Source: an uncultured Methanosarcinales archaeon
Lineage (GTDB): Archaea; Nanobdellota; Nanobdellia; Woesearchaeales; GW2011-AR9
Reading direction: 5' to 3'
DNA: 38,756 nucleotides
Assembly: GCA_964405725.1 (NCBI GenBank)
Contig: CAYOOY010000003.1
Coordinates: 1-38,756 of the forward strand
How positions within the stretch are numbered: the first letter of the stretch is position 1; every line of letters begins with the position of its first letter. Under the pieces are notes generated by a model that worked only from the letters and a program-made list of their open reading frames with translations, did not search any database and was not told the DNA's origin. The translations under genes were made by a program, and so were the position numbers. Of this stretch, positions 12,055 through 30,335 are shown piece by piece.

Positions 12055-12417
12055 GGTAGCAGTGGCAGGAAGCTGACGGTAACATATGTTGCTGTGGAAA
12101 GTCCGCCCACCGTGAAAGACCACTTGCAAAAGAGGGGGAAATCCCCTGGCTCTGGCTCAGAGACGACACGTCCTATGGATTATGGAATGACACATCATGA
12201 CATATGAAGCTTAAATGCCTCGTTTGTAACATGTCGACGTCTCCATAGGGATCGATGAAACGGCGAAACCTGGTTGGTGCAAGTCGTAGACGCTTAGTAG
12301 AATGCTTCCGTGGGTTGCTCGACACTCAAAAGGAATCCTCCTTTTGGTGCCACAAATAAACTTTTGTTTATTTGTTGGTTACGAAACCCAACAGAAGGCG
12401 GCTTACGTCACTCTACC
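12055..12417 (+). ncRNA. rnpB: RNase P RNA (archaeal, type-A-like)
   Basis: A non-coding island with GC content far above its surroundings. It contains the universally conserved CR-I-like GGAAAGTCCGCCCAC and CR-V-like ACAGAAGGCGGCTTAC. The ends can pair as P1 (GGTAGCAGTG... / ...GTCACTCTACC). It is followed by a T6 tract. The ends are approximate, within about 5 nt. Confidence 0.85.
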
Positions 12418-20510: not shown

Positions 20511-21764
20511 TTAGTCTTTATTTTGATCTTTTACATCTAAAATTATCTTATTACGTATAATCTTACTTTCAATGGATTCGTTTACATACCTATTATTAAA
20601 AATAGTTACAAACAAATCTGAATTTGTGTCTTGTATATCTGCAAAAGTTATTACCTTTAGAACCATTCGCAAATAATTCCTCCCCACATCGGAATGTAAA
20701 GCAACGTATTCCAAGCTTTTATCCAATAAAGAATCATCAGAATTTGAAACTAGAAAAAATGAAGATAGACCACCAACTTGATCTTGTTGATACAAGTGAT
20801 TGGAATTGAGTATAAAATTATAGTTAAAATCACTATCCAGGTTTATAATAAAATTTTCACCATAAGAACCATATTCATCAACATTTATGTTTAATGCGTC
20901 TACCTTTTGTTGGAGATCTAATGAATAATTCTCCAAAGAATAATACTTTTCTGCGTACTTTTTTTTCTCCAATAATGTAACCTCTTTCTGAGCTACATTT
21001 AGAGTATTAGCAAATAGATGTGATTGTACTACAATTTCAAATAAATCGTAGGTTTGATCAAAAATTATTCGGACGCAACTATTATTCAAGCAAAATGCAG
21101 GTTTAAGCTTATTATGATTGCTTTTAATTTTACTAAATACTTTAATTTTACTTTCCCAAAAGTTATGTATGTCATCAAAGATGGGATATTCTTCTGTGTT
21201 CAAATCATTACCCACAAGTTCCAGTTGATTCAAAGTATTTTGGTACTCAATATGAAAAGCAACACTATTTAGGTTGAACGAATATGTTTTAACACCAACA
21301 ATACCAACAGAAATCACTAGAGATAGGACAAAAGTGATCAAGAGTGTTTTTTTTACAAAGGATACGATCGTCATCGGTTTCATTTTTACCCAATGACTGA
21401 AAACATAAGCCGTAAAGAAAAAGATAAACAACAAAGGAAACAAGTAAATATATTGAATTATGAATAAGTTAAGGATGGCATCATGAAACAAAATATATGG
21501 AAGAACAACCACAAAAATGGTAGTAATAAATAATGAACACGACAAAATAGCAATACGTTCATTGATATTAATTATCAAATTACGGTTGAATGACTTTTCT
21601 AACATCAATTCATAAAAAAACGAAATCCCTAGTAGGATAAGTAGAGTTGTTAGCATCGTGGAGATTATGTCACCAACTATACCAGAAAAAAGTACTAAAG
21701 AAAGAACTCCTAATGAAAAAACAACTTTCTCTCTATCGGTAAGCAACCCTCTTTTTTCAAACAT
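20511..21764 (-). CDS. Hypothetical membrane protein (N-terminal multi-TM region plus an Asn-rich C-terminal domain)
   Basis: 417-aa ORF with several hydrophobic helices in the first ~160 aa. No family recognised. Confidence 0.5.
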   Translation of the reverse strand: MFEKRGLLTDREKVVFSLGVLSLVLFSGIVGDIISTMLTTLLILLGISFFYELMLEKSFNRNLIININERIAILSCSLFITTIFVVVLPYILFHDAILNLFIIQYIYLFPLLFIFFFTAYVFSHWVKMKPMTIVSFVKKTLLITFVLSLVISVGIVGVKTYSFNLNSVAFHIEYQNTLNQLELVGNDLNTEEYPIFDDIHNFWESKIKVFSKIKSNHNKLKPAFCLNNSCVRIIFDQTYDLFEIVVQSHLFANTLNVAQKEVTLLEKKKYAEKYYSLENYSLDLQQKVDALNINVDEYGSYGENFIINLDSDFNYNFILNSNHLYQQDQVGGLSSFFLVSNSDDSLLDKSLEYVALHSDVGRNYLRMVLKVITFADIQDTNSDLFVTIFNNRYVNESIESKIIRNKIILDVKDQNKD

Positions 21765-21828: not shown

Positions 21829-24174
21829 CTACTTCCCTTTCTTTTTTCCATAAATGAATATTTCTGTCTTAAATAATCGCCTTCTTCTGGAATAAGTTAC
21901 ATTTAATTTTTCTTTCTTGAATATTGCAAGTATCTTCTTTTTATCATCTACTTCTATTGCGTTCGGAGTCATGTTCAAAACATTATTCTTAATGTAAAAA
22001 CAAAATTTTCCTTTAGTATTCAATACTTTCTTAACATCATGAACAAATGAAGAGATATCTTTAACATATCCCAAATCATTAAATGAAATAAATGAATCTA
22101 CTTTTCCAGATTTTGTTGGAATACTAAGCGATCTAAGGAAATGAATAGTAATATGTTTCCTATCTTTAAGAGAAATGTTTTCTTTAAAAAACTTAATTTC
22201 TTCTTTTGATTGATTCGCTACAATTATCTTACGAAAAGGCATTTTAGCTTTAACGATTTTTTGAGTGAACGCACCCATTTGGGAATTGTACACCATAATT
22301 GTTGATTTTTTAGTAAAAGGACCAACTAAATTGATAATCTTGTTGAACGATGGTTTAGGTAAAGGAATTCTATGAAAATAATGTGACAACTTAGCTGACA
22401 TATTTCGCCTCAGGCCAACATACTTTTTATCGTAAAACAATTCTATTGCAAAATACGCTGGTACACCAAACACAATCAACCCACCAGAGATTCTAAGGAT
22501 ATCTAAGGCTCCATGGGTTTCCTTAATGAACATGATTAACAAAAAGATCATGAACAGAATTGTTGCAAAAGGTCCTACTTTTCCAAAAATGACACGATAA
22601 GGTCGATGCAAATCTGGCTTCTTAAATCGTAAGATCACTACGCTAAGTAACACTGCGGAATACACTATCAATATCAATGGAATGAGCATATGTAACAAAG
22701 TCTCGTATGAACCTGCTCCGACAATTACAAGAGCAGACACCACTATTACTTGAAATAAAATTGAAATATACGGGCTTTTGTGTTTCGGGTGAATTCGAGC
22801 AAACTGAGTGAAAAAGAGTTTATCTTCAGCGATTGACATTAAAAGACGAGGTGCGGTTACAATCCAGCCAGCCGTGGCCCCGATTACTGAAACAAATATA
22901 AGTACTGCAAAAATGATTCCACCTACTGCTCCAAAATGCGCGGACCCTAAATCCTTGAGAGGAGCAACCGATTCTGAAAATTGCGCCCAGGGAATTGTTC
23001 CCATGGCTGTAAAAGCAAGAAAAAATGATAATACAGCAATTATTAGTGTTCCATATATTAATGCTTTAGGCATGATTTTAGAAGGATTCTTTGTTTCCGC
23101 AGATAAGAAAATTGCACTTTCCCACCCAAAAAATGTTTCTGCTATAAAGAAGATTGCTAAAAGAACATTCATTGTGGGAAAAACGAAGAACGGATCAAAG
23201 TTGCCAAAATTGATATTAACAAATCCTGGAATAATTATTGCAATTACAGCTGTTAACGTGATAATTGCAAAGGTGACTAATACAACAGTAGATGTTTGCA
23301 TCCCTCTAAACGCAACATAACTAAATGCAATAATTAAAAAAATAGCAATTGGAATGTATGTGTACGAATATTGAAGGGGTATAAGATATTGCAGAGCACC
23401 TAGCAAAAGCATTGCGATAGTAACACTTCCCGCAATAGATGTTGTCCACCCAATAACAAACGACCAAAATCGCCCATAAGTTTGCTTTGCAAATTCATAT
23501 ACTCCTCCTGCCTTTGGGAACATGGAAACTAATTCGCCAAAACACATGGCAATATAAACAGAGATTAATGATAGTATTCCCCATGACAACAAGGAAGCAG
23601 GACCCGCATGCTTTGCTCCTGCCGAAGTGAGAAACCAAATTCCCGTTCCCATAATTGAGTTAATTGTAATAAGAAGAATTACTTTAAAGCTAAGAGTCTT
23701 TTTCATCTCCTTCTCGTGCGGTTGTACTTTTCTAATTTTAGCTTTTTTAACATATTTTCGTGTTCGCAAAAATCGCGGTGCTCGTGCGCCAAACCGCAAT
23801 AATCGCAGTAACCGTCCGTAGCGTGCAAATCGAGCCATTCTTGCCACCCTCGAAATTATTCGAACTCCTCTTAATGCCCTAATTAATGTAAGAGATTCAA
23901 TTCCAATAAATATTAAGTTGAACGGAATTGTAGCAACAATATCCAATATGTGTTTTTTAACATATGGAAAAAAGCGTGGTGTTTCAAACCATCGATAATA
24001 CAAATCTATTGCAAATATTACTATAACATACACATCAAATACGTCTATTACATAAGACATAACTTTTCCAACGCCAAAAAAAAGTTCAATTACGGTAACA
24101 ACAAGAAGAAGAACTAACGAAGGGGGAATTAATAATTGAATTACATCATCTAATTTATTCCTACTCATTATCAA
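21829..24174 (-). CDS. Fusion protein: S1-S4 voltage-sensor-like domain, APC-family amino-acid permease and an unassigned C-terminal domain
   Basis: 781 aa.
- aa ~15-130: Kv-like S3 (HILDIVATIPFNLIF) and S4 with Arg at roughly every third residue (LIRALRGVRIISRVARMARFARYGRLLRLLRF). No pore or selectivity-filter segment follows.
- aa ~160-600: APC permease (INSIMGTGIWFL, GPASLLSW, FGELVSMFPKAGGVYEF).
- aa ~600-781: soluble domain. Confidence 0.75.
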   Translation of the reverse strand: MIMSRNKLDDVIQLLIPPSLVLLLVVTVIELFFGVGKVMSYVIDVFDVYVIVIFAIDLYYRWFETPRFFPYVKKHILDIVATIPFNLIFIGIESLTLIRALRGVRIISRVARMARFARYGRLLRLLRFGARAPRFLRTRKYVKKAKIRKVQPHEKEMKKTLSFKVILLITINSIMGTGIWFLTSAGAKHAGPASLLSWGILSLISVYIAMCFGELVSMFPKAGGVYEFAKQTYGRFWSFVIGWTTSIAGSVTIAMLLLGALQYLIPLQYSYTYIPIAIFLIIAFSYVAFRGMQTSTVVLVTFAIITLTAVIAIIIPGFVNINFGNFDPFFVFPTMNVLLAIFFIAETFFGWESAIFLSAETKNPSKIMPKALIYGTLIIAVLSFFLAFTAMGTIPWAQFSESVAPLKDLGSAHFGAVGGIIFAVLIFVSVIGATAGWIVTAPRLLMSIAEDKLFFTQFARIHPKHKSPYISILFQVIVVSALVIVGAGSYETLLHMLIPLILIVYSAVLLSVVILRFKKPDLHRPYRVIFGKVGPFATILFMIFLLIMFIKETHGALDILRISGGLIVFGVPAYFAIELFYDKKYVGLRRNMSAKLSHYFHRIPLPKPSFNKIINLVGPFTKKSTIMVYNSQMGAFTQKIVKAKMPFRKIIVANQSKEEIKFFKENISLKDRKHITIHFLRSLSIPTKSGKVDSFISFNDLGYVKDISSFVHDVKKVLNTKGKFCFYIKNNVLNMTPNAIEVDDKKKILAIFKKEKLNVTYSRRRRLFKTEIFIYGKKKGK

Positions 24175-24230
24175 CCTCTTTTCACATAGGAAAGAATTAA
24201 GTTATATAAATTTAACTCAAAAAAATAAAA

Positions 24231-25151
24231 TTAAGAATTAAGATATCCATCTAAAGATATACTATCATCACTTCTAATATTCCAACGATGTGTCGGTGGA
24301 ACAAAAATTTCTGAAAGCCTAAATTTTGGGTCCAATTGATGTTCAACCAATTCACCATTAACTAATCTAAAAACATCTTTGGTCATATTTCCATCTTTCA
24401 TTTTAAAGAGCATCAACCCTTCATTATACACTGTCGTTTTCATTTTTTTATGTGCAGGGTCAAATCCTTCCTCAGCGTACATTAGTGTTAAACCACCAAC
24501 ATCTGGTAAATGCACTTTCAACGCAAAATCAAGTTGCACACAATTACAATGTGCATCTATATGAGCCACCGGATCACCGATAAGAGATTGTGTATTCACA
24601 GTAACACTTAAGTTATCTAAATGAGGAGGGTATTGTAGTAGATTTGGAATAACAGACACGCCTTGATTAGCATATGTAACGCGTGTATCATATGGAGTAA
24701 GAACTGATGTCCCCCAAATAACAGGACACAAACCATCTTCACCAACAACAATTAATTCCTCGCTCAACTCTTTTCCCATCAAACGAACTAATCCATCTGG
24801 CGAACCATATTCCGCTTCTGTATATCCAGAAATTAATTGTGAACGAGTTGTATTTGATTTGGAAACAATAATTGCGTACTCTTCACCTTGCCAATCAAGA
24901 GTAGCAGCAGCCGAAACCCCAACATTTGCTAAAGGAACAGAATCTCCAGCTTCTAATATGTTGCAAATTTGTGTAGCACGACGTTCTGAATTATGTTGAT
25001 AAAATTTTCTTTCCGCATCTTGCTCAGCAAAGCTTCTGACTTCATCAAGAATTGTAATATCTAATCCACCTTCAATTCTGCTAACTGTTACAGGATTATA
25101 CCCACTACCTGGAGAATGCAGAGATAAAATGTCTGGTAATTTGTAAGTCAT
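24231..25151 (-). CDS. Hypothetical protein (306 aa), translationally coupled to the upstream HD-domain gene
   Basis: The start is set at ATG 25151-25149 (MTYKLPDIL), which overlaps the upstream gene's TGA as ATGA. No family recognised. The composition is less Lys/Asn-rich than the neighbours. Confidence 0.55.
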   Translation of the reverse strand: MTYKLPDILSLHSPGSGYNPVTVSRIEGGLDITILDEVRSFAEQDAERKFYQHNSERRATQICNILEAGDSVPLANVGVSAAATLDWQGEEYAIIVSKSNTTRSQLISGYTEAEYGSPDGLVRLMGKELSEELIVVGEDGLCPVIWGTSVLTPYDTRVTYANQGVSVIPNLLQYPPHLDNLSVTVNTQSLIGDPVAHIDAHCNCVQLDFALKVHLPDVGGLTLMYAEEGFDPAHKKMKTTVYNEGLMLFKMKDGNMTKDVFRLVNGELVEHQLDPKFRLSEIFVPPTHRWNIRSDDSISLDGYLNS

Positions 25152-26083
25152 TTGTTGTTTCCTCGTGCAAAACAAAGTATACTTGCTAGTTCATCTTTGT
25201 AGAAATCTTCAAACATACGGGCAAATCTTTGCGGCGTTGCCACATCTTCAACAACTCCCAACTCTTCAGCACGACACATAAACATACCATCAATGATTGC
25301 TTTATCCGTTCTTGTATAAAATGTCTCACACATATTTCCTTCATTATATTTCTCTAACGATGTATCTAAAGGTAATCGATCCGTATTCCAATCTGTAGGA
25401 AGATCTTCTTCTCTCTCATAGAAAAAAGCTAACCTACACCGAAGGAATTCTTTGGGAGATAACGTAAATCCTAATTCTGCAGATTTAGCTTGGTATCCAG
25501 AATCACCATAATGTGCAACCATGTCTTTATACCAACTAAGAGCAGAAGGAACAAAACACCGATCTGCTCCTCTATGTGCCTTAGCTTCTCGATCAATTAA
25601 TTCTTCTCCCAAATAGGGAAAATCATGCGTATCAACAATTTCTTTTAATTTACCAATTCTCTCATTTGAAATATCAACACCACGAGATTGAAGTAAGCCA
25701 AGAGTGGAATAAAGCATTATACCACCAATTTCCATATGTTTCCAGCGTTTATCTGCATTTTCCCAATCAGCACCATCGGTAGTTGGGGCTATTTTCATTA
25801 ACGAATTTCCTGCATCATGTAACAATGCTGCATAAACTAAATCTCTATTAAATCCTTCTTCTCGACATATTGCAATCATAGAAGCTGGAACAATAACATT
25901 ATGAGAAGGTCGATACCATGCGCCCTCTTGGAATCCTAGATTTTGTACATAGTGATGAACATCCCGTTCTGCTGCATTTAGCATCCCACGAAGAGATAGA
26001 TCAATAGTTGGTTGATGGCCTTTTGCAACTTCTTTCATCAAATTTACGCATTCTGCGCGGTTTTCGGGACTATCAAATAACAT
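25148..26083 (-). CDS. HD-domain metal-dependent phosphohydrolase superfamily protein
   Basis: The ORF-track entry is trimmed to ATG 26083-26081 (MLFDSPENR). The HD pattern is SHNVIV-(about 29 aa)-ALLHDAGN ... KHMEIGG ... VDTHDFPY. Confidence 0.65.
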   Translation of the reverse strand: MLFDSPENRAECVNLMKEVAKGHQPTIDLSLRGMLNAAERDVHHYVQNLGFQEGAWYRPSHNVIVPASMIAICREEGFNRDLVYAALLHDAGNSLMKIAPTTDGADWENADKRWKHMEIGGIMLYSTLGLLQSRGVDISNERIGKLKEIVDTHDFPYLGEELIDREAKAHRGADRCFVPSALSWYKDMVAHYGDSGYQAKSAELGFTLSPKEFLRCRLAFFYEREEDLPTDWNTDRLPLDTSLEKYNEGNMCETFYTRTDKAIIDGMFMCRAEELGVVEDVATPQRFARMFEDFYKDELASILCFARGNNK

Positions 26084-26199
26084 AAGCGATTTTGTCCGTA
26101 GATACTTTAAAAATATTCTGAAAAAGAAGATTTCACACACAATCTTAAGTTTAACAACACTTAAAAACAAATTTTTACCCAAATGATTCAGATTTCCAC

Positions 26200-27696
26200 A
26201 TGGATTCAAACAAAATAAAAGAGATAGTACAAAAGTTTTCTCACAAAAAAATAGCAGTTATTGGAGATTATTACTTAGATGAATATTTTCATTGTAATGC
26301 AAAATCATTTTCGCCAGAAGCGCCAGTACCAAGAGCTATAGTAAATAAAATCGAACATGTTCCTGGCTGTGCTGGAAATGTTGCAATGGCATTCAAACAT
26401 CTAGGTGCACATGTGTTTGCAATTGGCGTTGTTGGTCCAGACGAAAAAGGGCATATATTACGTAATGCACTTATCAATTCTTCAATCAATACCACAAATT
26501 TAGTAGTAGATAGTGAAAGACTAACTGGTACATTTAGTAGAATCATTCTTGGCTCAGCTACCGACACATTAAACCAACATTTTATTCGTTTTGATCAAGA
26601 AAACAAAGCAGGAATTAGCCAGAACACACAACAAAAAATAATGGATCAATTACAATCATGTATTCAAAAAGTGGATCTCATTTTCATTGCAGATTACGAT
26701 GAAGCAAATAAACAAGGAATTGTTACAAATAATATGATTGAAAAAATAACCAATCTTGCAAAACAACACGCAGTCCCAACCATGGGATTATCACGTGAGA
26801 ATATCCATACATTTTCAAACGCTGATACCCTTCTTTGCAATAAAAAAGAACTCAAATCAGCAACAAATATGCCAACCAATTCAGAAGATGAATTAATACA
26901 AGCAGCAAAACAACTTTTACTGAAAACAAACAGCTCAGAAATTGTGACAACATTGGGAAAAGAAGGAATGATGGTTTTAGACAAATCACATAATTATGAG
27001 TTTCTTCCAAGTGTAGCGAAAACTGTAGTTGATGTGTGTGGAGCTGGTGATGCTCTTAGTGCTATGTATGGCCTTTGTTCAACATTACAGCTACAAACAG
27101 TCACAAAAGGAACATTAGCAAGTTATGCTGCTGCTATTGCAATTTCAAAAATGGGAACAGCATCAGTCACACATGATGAGATTATAGATCTTGCAGCAGA
27201 ACAGAATCCTGAATCTTCAAAAATAATACTTGACCTACAAGAATTAACCAATAAAGTGTTACGTTATAAACAAGAAGGGAAAAAAATAGTATTTACAAAT
27301 GGATTTTTTGATGTATTTCATTCAGGCCATGTTCATTTATTACAAGAAGCACGAAAACACGGGGATATTTTAATTGTCGCAATTAACAGCGATAGATCAA
27401 CTAAAGAAAACAAGGGAGAACATAGACCTTTTCTATCACAAGATGAGCGATTAAAGATACTTTCTTCACTTGATTGTTTGGACCATGCAATAGTATTTGA
27501 CGAGTTAACACCTGTGAAAATAATTTCTTCCCTGCAACCAGATATTGTAGCTAAAGGTGGAAATTTTTCAGTTGATCAAGTAATAGGAAAAGATATAATT
27601 GAAAAGTATGGTGGGATAATAAAAATAATTCCTCTAAATGAGACAACTAATACTAAATCACTTCTTGAAAGAATTAGTTCAGCAAAAGAATTATAG
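26200..27696 (+). CDS. hldE: Bifunctional D-glycero-beta-D-manno-heptose-7-phosphate kinase / heptose-1-phosphate adenylyltransferase (HldE/RfaE-like)
   Basis: 498 aa. The N-terminal PfkB kinase domain matches HldE motifs (IGDYYLDEY, SPEAPVP, PGCAGNVA, DVCGAGDA). The C-terminal cytidylyltransferase fold is FTNGFFDVFHSGHVHLLQEARKHGDILIVAINSD. Confidence 0.85.
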   Translation: MDSNKIKEIVQKFSHKKIAVIGDYYLDEYFHCNAKSFSPEAPVPRAIVNKIEHVPGCAGNVAMAFKHLGAHVFAIGVVGPDEKGHILRNALINSSINTTNLVVDSERLTGTFSRIILGSATDTLNQHFIRFDQENKAGISQNTQQKIMDQLQSCIQKVDLIFIADYDEANKQGIVTNNMIEKITNLAKQHAVPTMGLSRENIHTFSNADTLLCNKKELKSATNMPTNSEDELIQAAKQLLLKTNSSEIVTTLGKEGMMVLDKSHNYEFLPSVAKTVVDVCGAGDALSAMYGLCSTLQLQTVTKGTLASYAAAIAISKMGTASVTHDEIIDLAAEQNPESSKIILDLQELTNKVLRYKQEGKKIVFTNGFFDVFHSGHVHLLQEARKHGDILIVAINSDRSTKENKGEHRPFLSQDERLKILSSLDCLDHAIVFDELTPVKIISSLQPDIVAKGGNFSVDQVIGKDIIEKYGGIIKIIPLNETTNTKSLLERISSAKEL

Positions 27697-27710: not shown

Positions 27711-30335
27711 ATGAAAACAAAAGATAGAGATCCTCAATCACATTTCGCCATAGTAGATAGTTTTCTAAAACAAGCCGATCTTGATCAAGAAGAATATTTA
27801 GTCTTAACTAACGAACTAAAAAGATATCTTGATTTAAAATTAAATAGAGGGTTTATTCATCCAATGATCACTAAATTCTCAACAGATTGGTATCGTGAAT
27901 TCTATAGATTAATTGGATTTAAAGATCCGTATAAAAAATTAAAAGATCTCTCGAATGAAAAAGCAGGTGCCATTTTACCAACATTAACTGTAAATTCGTT
28001 TGAAGAAGCAGTGAAATTAAGTGTAGCTGGTAATATCTTAGATTATGGATCTGTTCTTGTTTTGAATCCAGAATTATACAATATTGCACATGAGATAACA
28101 CAATTCAAAAATTTATCTCTTTCAATAGATGACATAGAAAAACTTCAAGATGACATAAAAAATGCGAAAACTATTTTATTTCTGCCAGACAATGCAGGTG
28201 AATGTATTTTTGACATACCCCTATTAGAATACATAAACAAACATCTTCCCTCATATCGAGTATTTATTGGTGCTAAATCATCGCCAATGCTTAACGATGT
28301 TACATCTCAAGAATTACGTGATTTAGGATTTGACAAATATGGTACAATTATTCCAACCGGATCAAATGGGTTTGGCCTTCATGAAGAAGACACATCATTT
28401 GAGTTTAAAAGAATCTTACATGATGTAGATTTAATCATAGCAAAGGGTCAAGCATATATGGAATTTTTTACAGAATACAATTTTAAAAATGCATACAACC
28501 TTACTCGAGTAAAATATCCAATCATCAATGCAGCACTTGGAACATTAGATTATCATCAAAATGTAGTAGTATCATCAAACCGATATGCACATACTGGTAA
28601 AGCATACAAATTTGGTTCTCTTCATCCAAAAATTATTGAAAAAGAAAAATTGGCAGATGTAATAAAATCATTACGTTCGCAAGGAAAATCAATTGTAACT
28701 GCAAATGGCTCATTTGACATCCTTCATGTTGGACACATTCGTACATTTGAAAACGCAAAAAGGCAAGGAGATGTCCTTATAGTTGGGCTTAACAGTGATA
28801 GTTCAATACGACAATATAAATCACCTTATCGACCAATTAACCCTGAGCAACATCGAGCAGAATTTCTTGCATCGTTACATTCAATTGATTACGTGACCAT
28901 TTTTGATGAAACTGATCCTATTGCATTACTTTCATTAATTAAACCAGATGTCCATTGTAATGGTTCTGAATATGGAGAAAAATGTATTGAAGCAGAAACT
29001 GTAAAAGAATATGGTGGAAGAATCCATATCATGCCACCAATTGATGGTTTTTCAACAAGTGCAATGATTAACAAATGTGTAAAAGTACGCCAACTAGAAG
29101 AAAAATTGCACGAGCAAAGTGGTGAACATACCCCTCCCACAAAATTTGACATTAAAACAATGAGGGATAGCATTCTTTCAACGATCAAATCACAATCAGG
29201 AATTTTATTTGCAAAACCCGCATTAGTTCATCGTGAAGCATATTGTGGGAGAGGAATAATTGCAAAGAACACTAAGTTCGAACCATCCTACACTGATGAT
29301 AGAGGTTATTTACCAGTTGAATGGTGGGTTATGTCAACGATTCAAGCCGAAAATGAAATAAACAAACCTCTTGAAGGGATCACACACGTGTTAATTGAAG
29401 GGGTACCAACTCCATTAACTAAAGTACTTCAATATGTTCAAAAAGAAATTTTTGGGGAGTTTCAAGATTCATGGCCTCTAACAAAAATATTAGATATTGG
29501 TGGAGAGCCAGTTACACCTTCATTTTCAAAGACACGTGAAGTTCCCCCAATTCCAGTCCATGTCCATCCAGGGTATGTTCAAAATGGAAAAATAATTCCA
29601 CCAGGAAAAACAGAAGCATATTTCTTTCCACCGGTTGACATAGCTCCTTACAACCAAAACTTTGGACCAACAATTACTCGTCTTGGACTAAAACCAGATA
29701 TAACAAAAGAAGAATTTATTGATGCACTTGAGAAATATGGAAAAGATGATTCAATGTATTCAATATGTAACACGTACGATATCAAAGCAAATGATGGATG
29801 GACAATTCCATCAGGCATTGTTCATGCTCCTGGGCCATGGATAACATTTGAAATTCAACGACCACAAGATGATTTCCATTTACTTTCATGGCAATTAGGA
29901 TCCAGGTTGGATAACGAAACAAAACAAGAGCATACAAAAAGAATGCAGCTTCGCGGTCTTGCTAATTATCAAGATCTTGTAGATCAAGCAATAGATTGGA
30001 AAACGTCAACCGACCCACAATTTAAAAATAAATTTTATAGACCAAGTACAATAATTTCTACGGGTGATTGGGGAACAAGATCACAAATATTTTTTGATAT
30101 GTTCTATGGTGAAGCAATAGAGATGAACCCTAATTCGCAGATCACACTCCCCATATCCAATCAACCATACGCAGGAATTGTGTGGTCTGGAAAGGGATTA
30201 ATTAACAACAATCGTTTGGATGTAGATAACGAATTAGCTAAAGAATTTTTAATTACACCAAATACTGAGGTAACAATACAAAATGAAGAAAATAAAAAAT
30301 TACTTATTTACACAGTCTACCCACAAAGAAAATGA
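27711..30335 (+). CDS. Tri-domain protein: DUF89/ARMT1-type phosphatase, RfaE-II-like nucleotidyltransferase and type-I phosphomannose-isomerase-like cupin
   Basis: 874 aa.
- aa 1-~295: DUF89 motifs (LPDNAGECIFD, IAKGQAYMEFF).
- aa ~305-460: TANGSFDILHVGHIRTFENAKRQGDVLIVGLNSD and EYGGRIHIMP.
- aa ~480-874: PMI-like motifs (LTKILDIGG, PVHVHPGY, GKTEAYFF, IPSGIVHAPGPWITFEIQRPQDD). Confidence 0.7.
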   Translation: MKTKDRDPQSHFAIVDSFLKQADLDQEEYLVLTNELKRYLDLKLNRGFIHPMITKFSTDWYREFYRLIGFKDPYKKLKDLSNEKAGAILPTLTVNSFEEAVKLSVAGNILDYGSVLVLNPELYNIAHEITQFKNLSLSIDDIEKLQDDIKNAKTILFLPDNAGECIFDIPLLEYINKHLPSYRVFIGAKSSPMLNDVTSQELRDLGFDKYGTIIPTGSNGFGLHEEDTSFEFKRILHDVDLIIAKGQAYMEFFTEYNFKNAYNLTRVKYPIINAALGTLDYHQNVVVSSNRYAHTGKAYKFGSLHPKIIEKEKLADVIKSLRSQGKSIVTANGSFDILHVGHIRTFENAKRQGDVLIVGLNSDSSIRQYKSPYRPINPEQHRAEFLASLHSIDYVTIFDETDPIALLSLIKPDVHCNGSEYGEKCIEAETVKEYGGRIHIMPPIDGFSTSAMINKCVKVRQLEEKLHEQSGEHTPPTKFDIKTMRDSILSTIKSQSGILFAKPALVHREAYCGRGIIAKNTKFEPSYTDDRGYLPVEWWVMSTIQAENEINKPLEGITHVLIEGVPTPLTKVLQYVQKEIFGEFQDSWPLTKILDIGGEPVTPSFSKTREVPPIPVHVHPGYVQNGKIIPPGKTEAYFFPPVDIAPYNQNFGPTITRLGLKPDITKEEFIDALEKYGKDDSMYSICNTYDIKANDGWTIPSGIVHAPGPWITFEIQRPQDDFHLLSWQLGSRLDNETKQEHTKRMQLRGLANYQDLVDQAIDWKTSTDPQFKNKFYRPSTIISTGDWGTRSQIFFDMFYGEAIEMNPNSQITLPISNQPYAGIVWSGKGLINNNRLDVDNELAKEFLITPNTEVTIQNEENKKLLIYTVYPQRK

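Follow-up and report, generated by a model that had tools for sequence, protein, structure and literature searches.

An open reading frame (ORF) at 21829..24174, on the reverse strand of a 38,756-nucleotide stretch of archaeal contig CAYOOY010000003.1 (the window), raises the question of why an amino-acid permease should begin with a set of helices of which the last is lined with arginines. A reading of the letters alone (the sequence-only reading) had proposed that this ORF joins a pore-less, voltage-sensor-like S1-S4 domain to a full APC amino-acid permease and an additional C-terminal domain. The ORF was present as proposed, and every peptide quoted from it was located in the translation. 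Our analysis indicates that its first part, from approximately residue 7 to residue 141, is homologous to the S1-S4 voltage-sensor domains (VSDs) of voltage-gated cation channels and has VSD ancestry, a conclusion that we hold with high confidence. Residues are numbered throughout on the 781-residue ORF counted from its TTG codon, and the coordinates of the parts are collected in Table 1.

The homology was first of all apparent in searches against solved structures. When residues 1-159 were compared with the PDB by phmmer, 30 of 30 matches were VSDs of Kv channels, and the isolated VSD of KvAP came first. A profile of 39 family sequences matched KvAP with E=2.6e-5, and 47 of its 48 matches were the sensors of Kv, HCN, or hERG channels. 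Alignment with the KvAP VSD by hhalign gave E=5e-6 (E=4e-5 with a wider alignment) and paired E30, D47, F54, D57, R61, D78, and P84 with residues that we take to be E45, D62, L69, D72, R76, E93, and P99 of KvAP. The sequence-only reading had pointed to acidic residues in a putative S2 and to a near-canonical S3, and both descriptions held. Within the S2 segment VIDVFDVYVIVIFAIDLYY (residues 42-60), D47 and D57 are the residues aligned with KvAP D62 and D72, and the S3 segment HILDIVATIPFNLIF (residues 75-89) contains D78 and the invariant P84, aligned with KvAP E93 and P99. The S3-S4 part taken alone aligned best with S3-S4 of hERG and HCN. D47, F54, and D57 are spaced by 7 and 3 residues, as in a gating-charge-transfer center, and the same spacing separates E283, F290, and E293 in the charge-transfer center of Shaker.

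Over the wider set of relatives, the best-conserved positions were D47, F54, D57, P84, F85, and R134. D47, F54, and D57 were at least 90% conserved in 123 sequences, including relatives with 21-36% identity, and the position of D78 was occupied by Asp or Glu in 120 of 121 sequences. To judge from these alignments, the N-terminal domain retains the acidic residue of S1, both acidic residues and the hydrophobic plug of S2, and the acidic residue and proline of S3. A Pfam scan of the 123 family members showed that 72 matched Ion_trans (PF00520), in its S1-S4 half only and with a best E-value of 2.6e-10, and every other Pfam family was matched by at most 1 member. No NCBIfam model was found to cover the VSD module.

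Structure prediction, one of the checks named by the sequence-only reading, agreed with the sequence comparisons as to VSD homology. An AlphaFold2 (AF2) model of the N-terminal domain, built from a 123-sequence alignment, had a predicted local distance difference test score (pLDDT) of 79.6, with values of 85-92 in S1-S3 and 63-79 in the S4 region. Foldseek placed the isolated KvAP VSD on top for this model (probability 1.00, TM-score 0.51-0.54). Below KvAP were almost solely the VSDs of Kv2.1, KCNQ, Nav, Cav, and Kv4, and SLC9C1 (8otx) was at rank 36.

A long S4 with Arg at about every third position (residues 97-128, nucleotides 23791-23886) had also been described, and this pattern proved to be well beyond the composition of the protein as a whole: when the whole protein was shuffled 2000 times, no shuffle reached a run of 7 or more basic residues with period 3, and when residues 95-140 alone were shuffled 20000 times, 47 shuffles did. 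Basic residues occupy positions 99, 102, and 105, then 109, 112, 115, 118, 121, 124, and 127, and then 131, 134, and 137, and the helix ends in a family-wide R.PRF motif (R131, P133, and R134). The arginines are encoded by mixed codons and no DNA tandem repeat was detected under the R-x-x run by Tandem Repeats Finder (TRF), so the periodicity is maintained at the protein level. All of the S4 basic positions were Arg or Lys in 121 fused sequences. Among relatives, S3 (ATIPF) and the linker (QPHE) were 52 to 86 residues apart; 105 of 120 unique sequences fell into a single modulo-3 class with six lengths (56, 62, 65, 68, 74, and 86). As aligned, the S4 helix lengthens and shortens by whole R-x-x triplets between the conserved blocks RALRGVR and ARYGRLLRLLRFGARAPRFLR. 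At approximately 45 residues it exceeds the thickness of the bilayer, as in HCN and SLC9C1.

An arginine helix could also lie in the cytoplasm. The N-terminus would then be an ordinary three-helix anchor with a superficial likeness to a VSD, and the arginine stretch would be an amphipathic or polybasic segment with affinity for lipid headgroups or nucleic acid. The weak HMMER and Foldseek scores of the window protein taken alone would fit such an anchor, as would an hhalign alignment that stops short of S4 and the uncertainty of AF2 at residues 92-122. We nevertheless consider it highly improbable. Net loop charges over 121 sequences were +1.3 before S1, +0.3 between S1 and S2, +2.5 between S2 and S3, -0.8 in the S3-S4 turn, which has no Lys or Arg, and +7.1 in the linker after S4. 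This is a positive-inside pattern, as for a canonical VSD with its N-terminus in the cytoplasm. Transmembrane helix 1 (TM1) of the APC core starts on the cytoplasmic side, so the number of helices before it must be even and the Arg-rich segment would have to cross the membrane. That segment is the sole candidate for the fourth crossing, which speaks against a cytoplasmic amphipathic helix. A three-helix anchor would need an external N-terminus, with the S2-S3 loop (+2.5) outside and the acidic turn free of Lys and Arg inside, and would break the positive-inside rule. It is also opposed by the residue-for-residue match of S1-S3 to the functional positions of KvAP, by the Ion_trans matches of 72 of 123 relatives (up to E=2.6e-10), and by the fact that all phmmer matches in the PDB were VSDs (47 of 48 with the family profile). 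The sequence-only reading had named extra TM helices with a cytoplasmic arginine run as the outcome that would overturn it; VSD homology, helix parity, and positive-inside charges all conflict with that outcome.

Several observations do weigh against the assignment of a VSD, and of S4 in particular. The N-terminal 159 residues of the window protein alone reached only 17.5 bits (E=0.0025) against Ion_trans, for which the gathering cut-off is 25 bits. The hhalign alignment to KvAP spans S1-S3 only and does not include S4, and the Foldseek E-values were modest (3.5e-3) with a TM-score of approximately 0.5. The two placements of S4 conflict: the hidden Markov model (HMM) alignment begins S4 at L95 and equates R99, R102, R105, and R112 with KvAP R120, R123, R126, and R133, whereas in the AF2 model the chain turns near G103 and S4 occupies approximately residues 108-141. 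In the full-length AF2 model, pLDDT was below 50 at residues 92-122. The arginine helix varies by up to approximately 30 residues in length (52-86 residues from S3 to the linker), which is awkward for a rigid electromechanical lever. In relatives that consist of the VSD-like domain alone, there is a long, acidic S3-S4 region and the shared part is limited to the C-terminal R..R..RP..R.PRF block, so the first arginine block (R99-R105) may be located outside the membrane.

No pore follows S4, as the sequence-only reading had noted. The Ion_trans alignment of the window protein was limited to the S2-S4 part of the profile (positions 28-117 of 241), and where S5, P-loop, and S6 would stand S4 continues through a 20-residue basic linker into TM1 of the permease. 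With no pore half after S4, the fused protein is not a channel.

By sequence and by its predicted LeuT-type fold of 12 TM helices, the core is a complete and intact SLC7-like APC transporter, and the earlier call of a full APC permease was upheld. Pfam AA_permease_2 (PF13520) matched residues 161-548 with E=5e-45 and 154.6 bits (cut-off 27), phmmer linked the core to BasC with E=2.5e-30, and the nearest solved structures by sequence and fold were BasC, GkApcT, LAT1/2, b0,+AT, and AdiC. The full-length AF2 model (pLDDT 72, predicted TM-score 0.69) gave a Foldseek TM-score of approximately 0.76 to BasC and GkApcT. Its matches were only APC-superfamily or related LeuT-fold transporters (KimA and the NKCC/NCC/KCC cotransporters); this full-length search brought no VSD match, and the separate N-terminal model was used for the VSD. 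The motifs of the substrate site, NSIMGTGIW with the G-x-G of the unwound part of TM1 (residues 172-180) and FFGWES of TM6 (residues 348-353), were invariant in 71 sequences. No NCBIfam equivalog was near its cut-off (best TIGR00909, 179.5 vs 556.8 bits), which leaves the core outside the characterized subfamilies that would assign a substrate. In APC transporters of the BasC/ApcT type, a conserved TM5 lysine at the Na2-equivalent site stands in for the coupling cation. The BasC lysine, which we take to be K154, was aligned with T306 of the window protein (window 23257-23259), and Thr was invariant at this position in 121 of 121 family sequences. Given T306 in place of the TM5 lysine, the ion coupling of the transporter may be atypical.

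The sequence-only reading had allowed that a frameshift or an assembly error might have joined two separate genes, and read-through would have the same effect. A frameshift or chimera was rejected, with no observation in its favor. A whole-protein search returned more than 120 clusters (60-86% identity, approximately 775 residues, 97-100% coverage) from many independent metagenomes, metagenome-assembled genomes (MAGs), and single-cell genomes, all of them from Woesearchaeota/Nanoarchaeota, and 23 complete fused ORFs were found in GTDB species genomes. The same uninterrupted architecture in these independent clusters and genomes, and a linker between the domains that is among the best-conserved segments, leave a negligible chance that the fusion is an artifact. 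The fused clusters are annotated as "APC family permease" only, and none carries a precomputed PF00520 match. There were three representatives at 50% clustering, which marks the fused family as a compact lineage.

Identity of the relatives to the window protein was 71% in S1-S3, 74% in S4, 78% in the linker, 81% in the APC core, and 52% in the C-terminal tail, the least conserved part. On this comparison, the VSD and linker are conserved nearly as strongly as the transporter core. One relative, P0122, is a complete 587-residue VSD-APC gene without the tail and was found on two independent contigs (L084:2501-4264 and L085:460-2223), which makes the VSD-APC pair the constant unit and the tail dispensable to it. 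A split-off methyltransferase gene behind the tail-less gene of L084 was considered and rejected, as the 276-residue gene that comes after it is unrelated.

In one subclade, the fused gene is directly preceded by a gene for a 330-residue VSD-like paralogue (L001:5006-6004, L004:1967-2968, and L006:1958-2977), and the two genes overlap or abut. In this paralogue a VSD-like domain stands between a His-rich N-terminus and a Lys-rich tail, and the protein could act with the fused one as a partner subunit. The window has no such gene, and hmmsearch of its six-frame ORFs detected no second VSD gene. Some "binchicken" co-assembly MAGs bearing the fused or VSD-like genes are labeled "uncultured Methanosarcinales" (L011, L014, L016, L021, L025, L027, and L028) or "Gammaproteobacteria" (L059); the genes are of DPANN type, and these taxon labels are probably placeholders or mis-assigned.

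What might the VSD do for the transporter? We lean somewhat toward control of amino-acid transport by voltage. The product would be a single three-part membrane protein composed of a pore-less four-helix VSD, an SLC7-like APC transporter, and a cytosolic methyltransferase-fold domain. Its N-terminus would be inside, and S4 would run from the outside to the inside across the membrane. A change in membrane potential would move the S4 arginines through the center formed by D47, F54, D57, and D78. The long S4 would pass this movement by way of its basic cytoplasmic helix and the IRKVQPHEK linker to TM1 of the LeuT fold, with which it is covalently continuous; there is no S4-S5 linker. In LeuT-fold transporters the intracellular gate moves chiefly through TM1a, the cytoplasmic half of TM1, so displacement of S4 would be expected to bias the equilibrium between inward-open and occluded states and thereby switch or tune amino-acid flux.

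Alternatively, the VSD-derived domain may no longer sense voltage and may instead have a structural role, in oligomerization, membrane insertion or targeting, or the binding of lipids or partners, with transport independent of the potential. The variable length of the arginine helix (52-86 residues) and the low AF2 confidence in S4 are in keeping with a structural module, as are the abundance of stand-alone VSD-like relatives without a known role and the second VSD-like paralogue beside the fused gene in some genomes, which suggests VSD-VSD association. However, selection is strongest on the charge-transfer residues D47, F54, and D57 across the superfamily and on every S4 basic position within the fused family. 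A scaffold would need neither an invariant charge-transfer center nor an R-x-x register preserved through triplet-only insertions and deletions, and we regard a purely structural role as unlikely.

In a third scenario, the pore-less VSD would itself conduct ions, through an Hv1-like proton pathway or an omega-type one, and would supply or dissipate the coupling ion beside the transporter instead of gating it allosterically. Proteins consisting of a VSD only can conduct protons, as Hv1 does (PMC13095418, PMC10377628). Most of the DPANN relatives consist of a VSD alone, and the replacement of the BasC-type lysine by T306 means that the ion coupling may be unusual. Arg at every third position of S4, on the other hand, normally occludes the gating pore. 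Hv1 is marked by a tryptophan conserved in S4 and by an Asp of S1 that serves as selectivity filter; neither was seen here, and S1 has an ordinary E30 aligned to KvAP E45. Prokaryotes, moreover, are reported to be without Hv-type channels (PMC10377628). This scenario is improbable in our estimation.

The VSD-like domain is not confined to the fused proteins. When 1.84 billion representatives were searched exhaustively by HMMER with the N-terminal profile, 487 proteins were returned at E<=1e-3 (counted at 50% clustering), of which 130 were at E<=1e-10. Nearly all of the 487 were 140-230 residues long and matched the whole profile. The family, which includes relatives P0123-P0269 and loci L029-L083, is made up for the most part of pore-less proteins that stand alone. 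These proteins have S1-S3 with the D/F/D center, a variable and often acidic S3-S4 region, and a basic helix with the pattern R..RF.R..RP..R.PRF.K, and often end in an FFEKPTGKHH motif. They score at the threshold of Ion_trans (19-26 bits) and match its S1-S4 half only. Those members that carry a name, one of them in an Aenigmatarchaeota genome, are called "hypothetical protein". In GTDB, the family is spread over Woesearchaeota, Nanoarchaeia, Aenigmatarchaeota, and Nanohaloarchaea.

Other fusions of the module were also found. P0161 and L059:2479-3432 join it to an HPP domain (TM_HPP, PF04982, E=1.5e-10), P0143 and L042:2545-3384 have an unknown N-terminal domain of 4 TM helices before it, and P0150 is another of the fusions. 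In a 491-residue protein (L050:2947-4440), the VSD is followed by a TM segment and a large Cys-rich domain that is probably extracellular. The occurrence of the module in DPANN archaea, alone or with various membrane domains, is as expected of a portable sensor. We give an even chance to the broader proposal that the DPANN VSDs are an unrecognized family of portable pore-less modules, one branch of which is a voltage-gated LeuT-fold amino-acid transporter. The hundreds of stand-alone proteins pose the question of what role a lone pore-less VSD has in archaea.

The tail after the permease had been likened, tentatively, to class I methyltransferases. That assignment was strengthened, with the addition that the S-adenosylmethionine (SAM) motifs are degenerate in the window protein. 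The tail family profile matched ToxA (8rdl) with E=1.9e-5 and PH0226 (1ve3) with E=1e-4 among solved structures. The window tail scored E=7.5e-4 and 20.5 bits against Methyltransf_11, just under the 21.2-bit cut-off, and many relatives pass class I methyltransferase models (PF13847, PF13489, PF13649, and PF08241). By profile and model, then, the tail has a class I methyltransferase fold, and the fusion of a methyltransferase to a transporter is unusual in itself. Degenerate SAM motifs were present in approximately 62-75 of 121 sequences (~60%) and canonical ones in approximately 26-34 of 121. From its motifs, the tail in the lineage of the window protein very probably does not bind SAM and is a pseudo-enzyme. 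Its role would probably be that of a cytosolic platform for docking or regulation; where relatives have kept the motifs intact, the tail may sense SAM or catalyze a reaction, and in the window protein it would be non-catalytic.

The true start of the gene is probably the ATG at 24168 rather than the TTG. A GAGGT at 24174-24178 is 5 nucleotides upstream of this ATG, a TTTATATA box (24203-24210) is approximately 35-40 nucleotides upstream, and the N-termini of relatives read MSRNKLD or MARNKLD, which matches this start. At 12055-12417 (+) the window encodes an RNase P RNA of the archaeal type (Rfam RF00373, 129.8 bits, E=2.7e-36), confirming an archaeal host. This RNA, a GC content of approximately 34%, and the labels of the relatives indicate that the window is from a DPANN archaeon of Woesearchaeota/Nanoarchaeota. 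ARAGORN found 0 tRNA genes in the 38.7-kb window.

The neighbors of the fused gene in the window encode SecDF, glycosyltransferases, sugar-nucleotide enzymes, and hypothetical proteins. Flanking ORFs are at 24231-25175 (-) (314 residues), 25148-26209 (-) (353 residues), and 20511-21764 (-) (417 residues), the last of which encodes a multi-pass membrane protein. None of these three had a Pfam match at E<=0.001, and none is kept beside the fused gene in relatives. BLAST detected no flanking genes in common between the window and the loci of relatives, whose neighborhoods are entirely different, and the operon and neighborhood comparison yielded no lead on the function of the fused gene. Farther along, a multidomain gene at 26200-27696 (+) combines a PfkB kinase and a cytidylyltransferase (HldE-like). 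It adjoins an 874-residue gene at 27711-30335 (+) with an unusual fusion of an ARMT1-like damage-control phosphatase, a cytidylyltransferase, and approximately 450 unassigned residues.

Table 1. Parts of the fused gene and their coordinates in the window.
Feature	Residues	Window coordinates	Strand	Remarks
Whole ORF: VSD, linker, APC permease, methyltransferase-like tail	1-781	21829..24174	-	781 aa counted from TTG
Probable true ATG start	3	24166..24168	-	
S1 helix	7-33	24076..24156	-	conserved E30, aligned to KvAP E45
S2 helix	37-64	23983..24066	-	bears D44, D47, F54, D57, R61
End of S2-S3 basic loop (KKH) and S3 helix	68-92	23899..23973	-	motif LDI(I/V)ATIPFN
S4 and extension	95-141	23752..23892	-	13 Arg, nearly all at every third position
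Basic linker	142-160	23695..23751	-	nearly invariant IRKVQPHEK, leading directly into APC TM1
APC-superfamily (SLC7-like, LeuT-fold) permease core	161-599	22378..23694	-	
Class I methyltransferase-fold domain (predicted)	600-781	21832..22377	-	Rossmann-like alpha/beta in AF2 model
Degenerate SAM motif I	628-637	22264..22293	-	VYNSQMGAFT; relatives DYDCGVGGFT
Degenerate motif II	651-656	22207..22224	-	IVANQS; N654 in place of the ribose-binding Asp of relatives (AVDKS)
Stop codon		21829-21831	-	

How do these findings stand with what has been described? Reviews give SLC9C1 as the only VSD-regulated transporter (PMC10620092, PMC13095418), and a 2023 review states that every known prokaryotic VSD is accompanied by a pore (K+, Na+, or Ca2+) and that prokaryotes have no Hv-type proteins (PMC10377628). 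The sequence-only reading had remarked that VSDs coupled to something other than a channel pore are few, and had named voltage-sensing phosphatases (VSPs) and Hv1; the closest precedent, SLC9C1 (PMC10620092), was missed. No prior description of a VSD-APC fusion or of pore-less archaeal VSDs was found in the open-access literature. Non-channel effectors and transporters coupled to a VSD are a known but nearly empty category, and what is new is a VSD-transporter pairing, undescribed in prokaryotes. At the level of architecture, the VSD-APC protein and its DPANN relatives contradict both review statements, that SLC9C1 stands alone and that a prokaryotic VSD always comes with a pore.

If the reading is correct, this protein would be the first VSD-regulated transporter beyond metazoan SLC9C1 and the first prokaryotic non-channel VSD effector, and the coupling of VSDs to non-pore effectors would have arisen outside the eukaryotes, independently of SLC9C1. 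Genome-reduced symbionts that scavenge amino acids would couple nutrient import, or the prevention of leakage, to their state of energization. If the VSD gates transport, a single prokaryotic chain of approximately 780 residues would offer a system for studying S4 control of an alternating-access LeuT-fold cycle. It would also represent a second, independent evolution of the SLC9C1 solution, and might serve as a scaffold for engineered voltage-controlled uptake.

Among known systems, the sensors of KvAP, Kv, HCN, and hERG channels gave the best sequence, profile, and fold matches to the N-terminal domain, with which they share the acids and plug of S1-S3, the S3 proline, and the R-x-x pattern of S4. 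In contrast to these channels, the archaeal fusion has no S5-P-S6, its S4 is longer and richer in Arg (13 basic residues), and that S4 ends in the family-specific, proline-containing R.PRF. Ci-VSP, Hv1, and TMEM266 likewise have a pore-less VSD, with a non-channel effector or alone, and in VSPs the signal is carried by a basic linker that follows S4 (PMC13095418). However, these proteins are eukaryotic, and where they have an effector it is a cytosolic enzyme instead of a membrane transporter. The SLC7-type APC transporters (BasC, GkApcT, LAT1/2, and AdiC) have the same fold and signature motifs as residues 161-599. Neither an N-terminal VSD nor a C-terminal methyltransferase fold is present in any of them, and the TM5 Lys of BasC contrasts with the invariant T306. 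Class I SAM-dependent methyltransferases (ToxA, 8rdl, and PH0226, 1ve3) resemble the tail in profile and in the Rossmann-like AF2 fold, but in the window protein and approximately 60% of the sampled relatives VYNSQMG stands in place of motif I, DxDCGxG, and the Asp of motif II is replaced by Asn.

The nearest analogue in concept and function is SLC9C1, the sperm-specific voltage-gated Na+/H+ exchanger (sNHE), in which a secondary transporter is likewise covalently joined to a canonical, pore-less S1-S4 VSD. Its S4 is approximately 60 Å long and lacks an S4-S5 linker (PMC10620092). The two proteins share this very long S4 extending into the cytoplasm, the lack of an S4-S5 linker, and a third, cytosolic domain of a nucleotide- or ligand-binding type (PMC10620092). 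They differ in transporter fold, domain order, and cytosolic domain alike: SLC9C1 has the CPA/NHE elevator fold, a VSD placed after the transporter, and a cytosolic cyclic nucleotide-binding domain (CNBD), whereas the archaeal protein has the APC/LeuT rocking bundle, a VSD placed before the transporter and continuous with TM1, and a methyltransferase fold. One is found in metazoans and the other in DPANN archaea, and the two almost certainly arose independently. By analogy, the archaeal VSD-APC protein may work like SLC9C1, although it is not a member of that type.

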